From assembly GCA_951406725.2 (NCBI GenBank), contig OX597830.1, positions 16,430,001-16,494,000 of the forward strand: a DNA stretch of 64,000 bases, given 5' to 3'. Below the pieces are notes generated by a model that worked only from the letters and a program-made list of their open reading frames with translations, made no database searches and was not told where the DNA came from. Below, one piece after another: positions 15,285-45,130 of the stretch. Numbering within the stretch: position 1 is the stretch's first letter; every line of letters starts with the position of its first letter. A program made the translations under genes and the position numbers. The DNA is from Octopus vulgaris (Eukaryota).

Positions 15285-40827
<25,543 letters not shown>

Positions 40828-41319
40828 ATTATCTCTCTATACTGCACCGTAGAAGCACTTGTTACTCACAAATACACTTTATTAATATTCTTCAGGGTGG
40901 CCAGCTGGCAGAATCGTTAGCATGCTGGATGAAATACTTTAGCGGTATTTCACCCATCGCTACGTTCTGAGTTCAAATGCCATCGAGGTCAACTTTGCCT
41001 TTCATCTTATCAGATTTGATGAAATAACTACCAGTTACACACAGTTATTAACTAGACCCTTCCCTCAAATTCCAGGCCTTGTACCTATAGTAAAAAAGGA
41101 TTATATTCTTGAGGGTGGGAGGACAAGTTCAACAAAGCTATCTGGCCATTTAGAATAAGGAACTCAAAGATAAGTCTGACAAAGGATAAACATTTAATCC
41201 CTAATTGTTACTTCAACAAAATGTGTTTTGTTCAACAAACAATTGTGTTGAATGTTTACACTTTAGTATAGTTGTTTATTATATTATCACTTTCACTTTA
41301 TCCAACATTTTTATCACTA

Positions 41320-41700
41320 GGGATAACATCCACCTGTTGTCCACCTCTGTATTCTATAAACCCCATTTATTCCGACTTCTGTATCAACTATTCTTCCATC
41401 TTCACCAACTGCACAATAAAGACCCCACCACTACAACAACATCCACTCTAAATCTAAGGAGATGCAACACTTTCTCAATTGTGGCTGTCCTTGATTTGTT
41501 GTGAATATTGCACATTACTAAGCCAGGGCTATTAGTCATGCCATCACACTCGTGTTGAGCATATATTTAACTGCAGACTAGCTTCCCTTCTATTTTACAT
41601 CTTGTCCATCTTCTACTTAATATCTTGTCCATTTTCCACTTAATATGCATGCCCCCCCCTCCATAACTTCTACTTTCTATCCTCCAAGCTTGTGATTCCC
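41320..41700 (+). mobile_element. Possible decayed Penelope-like RT fragment in the SELENOO 3' UTR
   Basis: LSTSVFYKP...LRRC resembles the Penelope thumb-region motif; heavily degenerate. Confidence 0.4.
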
Positions 41701-43456
41701 AATCTTTCCCTGGCCACTTCTCTACGCCACACAATTACTTTTCTGTCAGACAATGGGTCAATCTTCGAATATCAGAACCGCTTCTTTCCATATACAAATT
41801 TAACAAAATTTAGATTTACTATAACCTACATGGTCGACGGAGGGCACAAGAACACAGAGTATTTGTATGATTAAAACCCTTAATCCAGTAAACTAGTGAG
41901 TGACCTTAAAGCTTACGGGTAAACAAGAATTGAACTTTGGTGCTCAAAATGCTCTGGCTCTGCTGAACTTCAATAGAATATTACAGTAACAGTTTTTGCC
42001 ACAAGAAGTAAATAAGTAATAATTCTTATTACTAATGATGTGTTTAGCATGACAGAGATATATCTTAACACAGTTTTTCTAAGAATATAGAATTAACCAT
42101 ATTTAAATTATCACACAGACCTTAATTAATATTTAGTGTGAACGTGTGCTTCTATGGTGCTGAAATAAGCCAAACAGATTTGCTAAGAATGTGGGGGAAA
42201 AGATCTAGAAGAATTAACAAACTTGAAAGTCATTATCAAAAAAATAATTTCTCATATCATAAAGTTTTTGCATCTACTCCTCCCACCCACCCCTTCATTC
42301 TGCATTATTAAAACAGATAGGTTAAGAAGTACTTAGCTGTCCATTTCCATTATTTGGATCCTGGTTCTTCACAAAGATATACAAAGGAACTAAACATTAA
42401 TTCATTCTAACAATTGCAGGATTAATGAACCTTAATGTCGCTTTCTCTTCATTAATAACAAAATAAATTCCCTGATTATTGTTATTATTGAGGCGGTAAG
42501 CTAGCAGAATCGTTAGCACACTGGGCAAAATACTTAGCGGCATTTCGTCCATCTTAAAGTTCTGAGTTCAAATTCCACCCAAGATCAACTTTGCCTTTCA
42601 TCCTTTCAGGGTCAATAAATTAAGGACCCATCAAGCACTGGGGTCACTGTAATCGACTAGCTCCCCACCCCCCTTTCCCAATTTCAAACTTTGTGCCTAT
42701 TGTAGTAAGGATTATTACTATAATTATCATCATCCTCCTAAAATTGCTGGCCTTGTGCCAAAATTTGAAACATGGGCATTGATTGAGCTGGCAGACCAAA
42801 AATGCTTAGCAGCATTTCTTCCAGCTTCACATTCTGAAGTTAAATGCCACTAAGGTTGACTTTACCATTCATTCAAAGTACCAGTTAAACACTGGGGTTG
42901 AGGTTTATGTTAGAAACAAATATAATAATTGCCATGATGAAGGCAGAGGATTGGCAGAATTGTTAGCACAGCAGACAAAATGACTTGTGGACCTTTATGT
43001 TCCGAGTTCAAATTCTGCCAAGCTTTTCATCATTGCAATAAAATAAAATACCAGTTACGTACTGGGCTCAGAGTAATCAATCATATCCCTCCTCCAAATT
43101 TAAGGCTACGTGCCTTCGTTAGAAATTATCTTCATCATCGTTAGGCGAGTTAATTTTTTTGCAAACTGCTGACATCAATTACAGATTATCCATTAGCAGA
43201 ATTATCAGATAATCTATCTAACCATATTATTATTGTTTTTGTTTATAAACATTTAAAATCCTCATAATTCAGTTTGTTTAAACATAAAATTATTATATTG
43301 ATATTATATCGGATATTAGAAACTAAGGAAAATTGCAAAATGATTAGGTTCACTAAGATCATAAAGATTAAATGTTTATCAGATTAATCATCTTAAAATA
43401 TTCATCTTATACTTCACTAATTACTTTTCATGTTTGTTAATCCTTCATCTTTTTCC

Positions 43457-43517
43457 TTGCTGATGTATGATGGGTTTTGCTTAATCTCTCAAGAGGGGCA
43501 AATCCTTGACGAAGCAG
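43457..43517 (+). promoter_or_regulatory. SECIS element (type II) of SELENOO
   Basis: ATGAT(43467) + 11-nt arm GGGTTTTGCTT + AA(43483) + mini-stem CTC-tcaa-GAG + GGGCAAATCCT + TGAC(43507). Helix II pairs at 10 of 11 positions (G-U allowed); tandem G.A/A.G core; helix I TTGCT/AGCAG. Confidence 0.85.
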
Positions 43518-43641
43518 TCAAAACTGGCTTCTTTTTTTTTTTTTTTTTTTAAAATCAACTTTAAACAGTCTAAACATACTATTAAAGAAATATGATTAAA
43601 TCAGCTTTTCTTTTTTTTTTTTTAATATTTACAAAACTATT

Positions 43642-43647
43642 AATAAA
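43642..43647 (+). terminator. Likely polyadenylation signal (AATAAA) of the SECIS-containing SELENOO mRNA
   Basis: AATAAA about 125 nt after the SECIS, preceded by U-tracts and followed by GT-rich sequence; an ATTAAA is also present at 43581. Confidence 0.5.
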
Positions 43648-43750
43648 ATTTTCTTATAACAAAATGATTTGAGTTGTGTATGATGACATATTACACGAAA
43701 GGATTGTACGCTATGTATTTGTGTGTGTGTGCGCATGCGTGTATATATAT

Positions 43751-44325: not shown

Positions 44326-45130
44326 ACAAAGGTGGGCTGAAAAGATCATCAGCTGACTACAAACGAGTGATGCTTGAGCATTTATTTCAACTCTTCCTAC
44401 TAATAACTGCATTGCTTCTTTCCAGGTAAACTGACGTCAGATTTTTCAAAGAAGACTTCAAAAGTAACTTGTAGCAACTTTTCTTGAAAATGGACAACGT
44501 TTGGTGTCCTGATGTTATCGAGTACCTGCAGAAAAAAAGAGATTTAGCCCACAAGGACATTCATGGTAACATGGTTTTTACATTAGGGGATGATGCTCCA
44601 GTTTTATCAACAGTGCAAAAGTGGGAAGCTGATTTAGGAGGGAATGTAGAGTCTTGAAGATGACCCAAGGTCTGGACGTCCTGCCACCACCAAGAAAAGC
44701 ATTGATTGTGTTCACTACATGATGATGGATAACAGACTGTAAATCAAACAGCCAATGCTATTAACAGATCCTGTGAGAGAGTTGGGAATATCCTGCACTA
44801 TGAACTTGCTGTGTCTACTGACACCTGATCGAAAGTACACCAGGCTGATCACATCACAGAAAATCTGACATTCATTGAGGCAGACCCAGCTGACTTCCTT
44901 GAATGTTTCCAAACCCAAGATGAGTGAGGCTTCAACACTGTGAGCCAAAGACAGAGAGACAATCCATTCAGTGGAAACATCCCTAGTCATTTGTTCCAAA
45001 ACAAGCCAAAATTGTTTCATCTGCAGGGAAGGTGATGGCCTCAGTCTTTAGGGATGCAAAAGGAACTGTTTATTGACTATCTTCAAAAGGGCCAGACCAT
45101 CAATTGTAAGTAACTAGGCCGACTTCTTTG
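44326..45130 (+). mobile_element. Decayed mariner transposase fragment
   Basis: Frameshifted motifs STVQKW, EDDPRSGRP, AGKVMASVF.DAKG and IDYLQKGQTIN. Confidence 0.85.

Follow-up and report, generated by a model that had tools for sequence, protein, structure and literature searches.

The closest described counterparts of the octopus locus are the metazoan SELENOO proteins, including human SELENOO and the SelO listed in the selenoproteome of the limpet Lottia gigantea (PMC3473315). These proteins combine a kinase-like domain and an N-terminal extension with a selenocysteine (Sec) three residues from the C-terminus, and their SECIS element lies in the 3' UTR. A second group is formed by the bacterial SelO/YdiU AMPylases (PDB 6EAC, 6III, 9JYM and 6K20; chains of 478–491 aa), and a report on SelO homologues describes protein AMPylation activity with redox and metabolic enzymes as targets (PMC12409994). 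The selenoprotein-coding Naiad (Penelope-like) elements, in which this mollusc genome is rich, likewise have a SECIS behind UGA codons; their SECIS is described as type I, situated 1–21 nt from the stop and carried in repeats (PMC8557442).

Octopus SelO has the ordinary arrangement of an animal selenoprotein and is notable for its long tail and for its truncation in databases. Its UGA at codon 718 very likely encodes Sec, most likely by means of a hairpin at 43457–43517 near the end of the UTR. Sec as the third-last residue and a SECIS in the 3' UTR, both predicted for octopus, are found in metazoan SELENOO as well, and the locus is probably a real, functional selenoprotein gene.

One SelO gene, with 13 exons at 15285–40827, was found on the + strand of the window (the whole 64-kb stretch of DNA analysed). 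All 12 of its introns have GT–AG borders, and the sole in-frame stops are the TGA at 40816 and the TAA at 40825. The coding exons are as follows:

15285..15814, + strand: first coding exon, taken from an in-frame ATG further upstream (15285), where P0124, P0001 and P0123 also start
23228..23366, + strand: exon 2, PF02696 match
24683..24828, + strand: exon 3, from the ORF and splice sites
26985..27108, + strand: exon 4, from the ORF and splice sites
27967..28082, + strand: exon 5, PF02696 match
30284..30387, + strand: exon 6, with the LNTDN and DYGPFGF motifs, aligned to 6eac_A
32246..32418, + strand: exon 7, PF02696 match
33198..33229, + strand: exon 8, from the ORF and splice sites
34481..34675, + strand: exon 9, from the ORF and splice sites
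35874..35994, + strand: exon 10, from the ORF and splice sites
37086..37243, + strand: exon 11, from the ORF and splice sites
38350..38528, + strand: exon 12, spliced to exon 13 in a single contig from each of four runs
40682..40827, + strand: coding portion of exon 13 with the tail VS-TGA-SS-TAA, from the ORF, splice sites and contigs

When the PF02696 profile was searched against the whole genome, five exons scored above the Pfam cut-off, all of them at this locus, and there were no matches elsewhere. The core of octopus SelO aligned to the Pseudomonas SelO structure (6eac_A, E = 3e-100) with its conserved motifs, indicating membership of the SelO domain family, and the catalytic-core motifs aligned to the bacterial AMPylases as a group with E values from 3e-100 to 1e-95. 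Unlike the bacterial chains, octopus SelO carries an N-terminal extension, an insert of ~100 residues between two aligned stretches and, as predicted, a eukaryotic SECIS. The residues preceding the TGA were identical (717/717) to P0124, labelled Octopus vulgaris, and identity across the same 717 residues was 99.4% with P0001 (O. sinensis), 93% with P0123 (O. bimaculoides) and 78% with P0002 (Argonauta). The N-terminus consists of a 70-residue Arg-rich extension common to octopod entries named 'mitochondrial', and is a likely candidate for a mitochondrial targeting peptide. An Ala/Ser-rich linker precedes the tail, as it does in other octopods. Two divergent entries were also seen. P0121, labelled as an O. 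sinensis isoform of 640 aa, runs into intron 11 (from 37244) and is without the Sec exon; Sec-less 3' isoforms have been described for mammalian SelO (PMC3316567). The cuttlefish entry P0125, named SELENOO (824 aa), has an unrelated tail, which is probably a gene-model error; the transcript-derived members of its cluster end LRVT.

At the end of this 13-exon frame, the codons TGA, TCT, TCA and TAA follow one another in frame, exactly the ending given in the original prediction:

40816..40818, + strand: in-frame TGA, codon 718 from the ATG at 15285, predicted Sec; Cys at this position in 6 of 76 long homologues
40825..40827, + strand: TAA, predicted true stop, from the ORF

A homologue search found 579 sequences, 120 of which were listed. 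Among the 76 listed homologues of 550 aa or more, 62 end in V[ST] immediately ahead of the Sec position, six end C-S-S and eight have other tails; the UGA therefore occupies a position that is Cys in some relatives and at which most entries are truncated. TGA-TCT-TCA-TAA, like the C-S-S tails of homologues, places a Cys or predicted Sec at the third-last residue. None of the 76 shows U, which may reflect the storage format of the collection and is not evidence. In all four entries from three Octopus species and Argonauta (P0001, P0002, P0123 and P0124), the last residue is the one preceding the UGA, bearing out the expectation that automated annotation would cut SelO three residues short. In addition, a degenerate pattern for the tail (TGA-Ser-Ser-stop) retrieved 63 metagenome-contig loci, of which tblastn confirmed 49 to be SelO; because the pattern demanded TGA, this count shows that the ending is widespread and does not give the frequency of TGA. 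The final 22 residues, searched against PDB, gave no match. The domain and the Cys-aligned UGA thus support the earlier proposal of a SelO gene with UGA as Sec, recoding itself being a prediction from sequence.

The sequence downstream of the stop contains the following features:

40828..43660, + strand: inferred 3' UTR of ~2.8 kb, its 3' end inferred from an AATAAA, with contig cover to 43521 in three of four runs
40879..41104, + strand: decayed SINE-like repeat, 78% identical to a copy near 28965, with A/B-box-like motifs
41105..41259, no strand assigned: palindromic dispersed repeat, MITE-like, with approximate bounds, from genome copies
41275..42460, no strand assigned: single-copy middle of the UTR (~1.2 kb), with no Penelope or other coding remnant detected by genome search, Pfam or tblastn
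42476..43078, + strand: three decayed SINE-like pieces (42476–42770, 42792–42901 and 42952–43078), in the same orientation as the first
43457..43517, + strand: predicted type II SECIS, from the Rfam alignment, a SelO-derived model, a pattern scan and folding; single copy in the genome search
43642..43647, + strand: AATAAA, candidate distal poly(A) signal, from the motif, 125 nt after the hairpin

In the hairpin, ATGA (43467–43470) is followed by 12 nt, AA (43483–43484), 23 nt and GA. Helix II starts at 43472 and comprises 10 positions with nine pairs and one U-U mismatch; the apical mini-helix has 4 bp and helix I has 4–5 bp. The core, AUGAU/UGAC with tandem G-A pairs, has the UGAN/NGAN form, and helix II, the 12 nt leading to an unpaired AA (11–13 nt after AUGA in type II elements) and the mini-helix together give the type II shape. 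The geometry originally described (AUGA, AA, apical mini-stem and GA) is therefore present, but its 11-nt helix II is reached only by counting the U-U pair that closes the core. Compared with type II SECIS RF00031, the octopus hairpin shares the AUGA-N12-AA-N23-GA layout, the tandem G-A core, helix I, the 10-position helix II and the mini-helix, and differs in its score (22.5 bits, below 35), in the mismatch in helix II and in the 3' core, which is UGAC instead of the consensus KGAW (PMC3753652). Only the last base departs from KGAW, and the same UGAC occurs at another locus (L056).

The strength of this candidate was evaluated by several approaches. A pattern scan of both strands of the 64-kb window returned this hairpin as its sole match, and dinucleotide shuffles of the UTR gave at least one match in 4 of 1000, with thresholds that had been set when the candidate was already known. 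Folding energy alone leaves the whole hairpin unremarkable and not beyond shuffles: z was −0.76 for 96 nt (43/200 shuffles as good), −1.43 for 61 nt (21/200) and −2.25 for the upper stem (2/200). Rfam SECIS_1 aligned to the hairpin over its full length with 22.5 bits and E = 0.54, against a gathering score of 35, and at that threshold nothing was reported in the 64-kb window. The same threshold also reported nothing in any of the 20 loci, out of 63 other tail loci, to which it was applied, although 16 of these 20 have strong SelO-model matches, so it was regarded as a cut-off for curation, and the hairpin was classed as a SECIS prediction and not an RF00031 hit. Moreover, a covariance model was built from 17 hairpins behind other SelO genes, with octopus excluded. 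This model ranked the octopus hairpin first of 16 matches in the window (16.8 bits, E = 0.15), and it matched 40 of the 63 tail loci, always downstream and on the same strand as the tail. Across the 17 training hairpins, 89% of helix II cells were paired and 9 of 10 pairs showed double changes, figures that lean favourable since the elements had been picked for pairing. A contig from organism B spans 42743–43521 with 9 differences in 779 nt, counted over the whole span. The pattern, Rfam and model tests all point to the hairpin at 43457, none of them strongly on its own, and the original identification of the hairpin as a SECIS is upheld as likely by the sole pattern match and the top, though weak, model match.

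The apex of the hairpin is AA, unlike the CC that is confined to mammals among SelO SECIS elements; AA is the normal non-mammalian form (PMC3316567). The pattern matches behind other SelO tails had AA in 26 of 26 cases although CC was allowed, and 37 strong SelO-model matches, 17 of which had trained the model, comprised 29 AA, 7 AG and 1 AU. AA is thus the default apex in SelO SECIS elements and not special to the octopus, and the label 'cephalopod-type' is unfounded. The seven AG and one AU apices (L037, L039, L047, L054, L020, L024, L066 and L016) belong to a related group from other organisms and occur where close relatives have AA.

The TGA and the ATGA of the hairpin are separated by 2651 nt. 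The 35 other distinct SelO candidates have distances of 83–1147 nt (median 372), so that the octopus value is more than twice the longest of them; short metagenome contigs and the 23 of 63 loci without a model match mean that long distances are under-counted in this set. In mammalian selenoproteins the distance is reported as 207–5207 nt, with a mean of 872 (PMC3316567). The view of 2.65 kb as exceptional therefore applies to SelO, for which the distance is long, but not to selenoproteins at large, as it falls within the mammalian range. This long distance, the weak Rfam and SelO-model scores, and the eight other SelO candidates with an AG or AU apex, which a pattern for AA or CC misses, would fit a UGA that encodes Sec by way of a different, non-canonical or nearer SECIS, with the hairpin at 43457 incidental. 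We consider this very unlikely, because the covariance model needs no AA and still ranks the hairpin first, its two other UTR matches score less (11.4 and 9.3 bits) and are both on the minus strand, and contigs reach the hairpin. No stable hairpin was found beside the UGA itself (40810–40880, z = +1.03).

The machinery required for Sec insertion is represented in the octopus genome. A tRNA-Sec with a TCA anticodon was recognized in three of four genome loci scanned, together with a multi-exon SepSecS, domain 4 of eEFSec and an SBP2-type exon (E = 8.5e-14 to human SBP2, 7zjw_B) in which SBP2 and SBP2L are not told apart. Two of the three tRNA-Sec genes (L070, L071 and L072) are identical, inverted and ~57 kb apart on C24; the other, with two changes, lies on C3. 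Following the known eukaryotic pathway, SBP2 would bind the tandem G-A core of the hairpin and eEFSec would deliver Sec-tRNA at the UGA, and the ribosome would then make a 720-residue SelO ending U-S-S. Failure of recoding would yield the 717-residue form, as in databases. By homology, octopus SelO would act in mitochondria as a pseudokinase whose AMPylation targets are redox and metabolic enzymes. The C-terminal Sec of SelO is a likely redox switch.

Should the UGA instead be a true stop, the protein would end VS, and Ser-Ser-stop and the hairpin would be relics. All complete octopod database entries do end before the UGA, the hairpin is not strongly stable, and the human SelO SECIS was among the weakest tested in reporters (PMC2761289). 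Cutting a protein short at a C-terminal Sec is, however, a known fault of annotation, with SELENOO among the documented cases (PMC12822975); furthermore, Ser-Ser-stop and an intact hairpin core persist in a genome that contains the Sec machinery. A true stop is accordingly most improbable. Given the weakness of the human element, both Sec and Sec-less octopus forms may be made.

A SECIS acts on the mRNA that carries its UGA, at more than 51–111 nt from it, so the extent of the SelO transcript was assessed with contigs from four sequencing runs (X1, X3, X9 and X13), which carry no strand and whose RNA nature was guessed and is supported by spliced contigs. Exons 12 and 13 were joined by one contig in each of the four runs, and these contigs run 100–140 nt past the stop. 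One intron bin had a depth of 0 in all four runs, and in the runs that cover the UTR the depths of UTR contigs resembled that of coding contigs. X13 provided overlapping contigs from 40987 to 43521, and in X1 and X9 contig cover reached 43521 with breaks at repeats. In X3 the depth was 0 over 43325–43525, where contig filters can leave holes. All four runs break inside the first SINE-like piece, so that the UGA and the hairpin are never joined within one contig. An X1 contig goes on for 132 letters past 43521 and, if colinear, would end near the AATAAA at 43642, the signal that had been predicted to follow the SECIS and that is present 125 nt beyond it. Taken together, the UGA and the hairpin are probably on one mRNA.

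Four further AATAAA occur downstream of the stop but ahead of the hairpin, at 41415, 42462, 42614 and 43037, the last two inside distal SINE-like pieces. Most mRNAs could accordingly be polyadenylated upstream and be without the SECIS, which would make the Sec form minor or regulated. Along the UTR, contig depth drops from 71 to 44 in X13, and over the hairpin it is zero in X3, in line with such an arrangement; X1 (8.5 to 8.2) and X9 (56 to 67) show no fall, and the relative levels of different gene parts cannot be read from contig depth. The chance that upstream polyadenylation predominates is very slim. An unlikely and speculative extension is that poly(A) signals borne by the SINEs switch SelO, through alternative polyadenylation, between the 720-residue Sec form and the 717-residue Sec-less form. 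If so, transposons would control whether SelO keeps its redox tail.

The origin of the long UTR was examined by repeat searches. The repeat at 41105–41259 has nested inverted arms and is 73–86% identical to ~40 copies among the matches listed. The other pieces are labelled SINE-like on the basis of copy number and A/B-box-like motifs. Recognizable repeats account for ~900 of the 2651 nt (34%), and the remaining ~1750 nt still exceed the distance in every other SelO candidate here. The gain in UTR length from repeats would be about one third, with single-copy sequence making up the remainder. The proposal that insertions had pushed the SECIS away is not supported: SINE-like pieces are present, but repeats make up only about one third of the distance. 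A Penelope-like insertion, also part of that proposal, was sought in the UTR with genome DNA, Pfam (ORFs and six frames), tblastn, blastn and nhmmer, and rejected: these searches returned SINE-like matches and noise. Pfam gave no matches in six frames of 41100–42061, and the best tblastn score against 8 long ORFs of 12 GIY-YIG loci was 17.3 bits, which 43 of 60 shuffles equalled or bettered. The region 41275–42460 is single copy, and no reverse transcriptase or GIY-YIG remnant was found by these tests, which could miss a very old remnant of another family. Elsewhere in the genome, many GIY-YIG elements (G000; for example L092 and L097) have identical scores and 781-codon open frames, which suggests a recently active Penelope-like family.

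These results bear on whether a Naiad element brought the hairpin or the hairpin belongs to another transcript. Naiads occur in Octopus, some clam and spider Naiads carry a SECIS, and donation to hosts has been proposed (PMC8557442). Unlike the type I SECIS of Naiads, the octopus hairpin is type II, single copy and without a flanking Penelope remnant in the UTR, and other SelO genes have their own SECIS; a Naiad origin, or membership of another transcript, is thus extremely improbable. Equally far-fetched is A-to-I editing of the UGA into a Trp codon, giving W-S-S in place of U-S-S: it is suggested only by the extensive A-to-I editing of coleoids, the SINE-like pieces share one orientation with no inverted pair in the UTR, and the X3 contig has 0 differences over 40680–40925, so that the main X3 form keeps the UGA, contigs being prone to drop rare variants.

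With UGA as Sec, octopod SelO gene models would be corrected from 717 to 720 residues ending U-S-S, with Sec predicted, and a probable SECIS is marked that scores too low for the Rfam threshold. A mollusc SelO selenoprotein, the AA apex outside mammals, kilobase UGA-to-SECIS distances and misannotation of C-terminal Sec are already in print. A literature search, with subscription papers outside its coverage, found no paper on octopus SelO or the cephalopod selenoproteome, and the record is thus new for this lineage. Its significance is practical and not conceptual, and would be greater only if the Sec form were switched on and off through the upstream poly(A) sites.

Two further repeats were observed around the end of the gene. 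Part of intron 12, at 39920–40468, had been taken by eye for a mitochondrial insertion, a reading that was rejected; it is an AT-rich, young, multi-copy nuclear repeat for which a first look gave 2128 candidates. The 39 best-matching copies elsewhere are 94–97% identical over ~320 bp, and two copies share ~1.2 kb. Just downstream of SelO, at ~44650–45110, lies what by eye is presumably a decayed mariner-like transposase.
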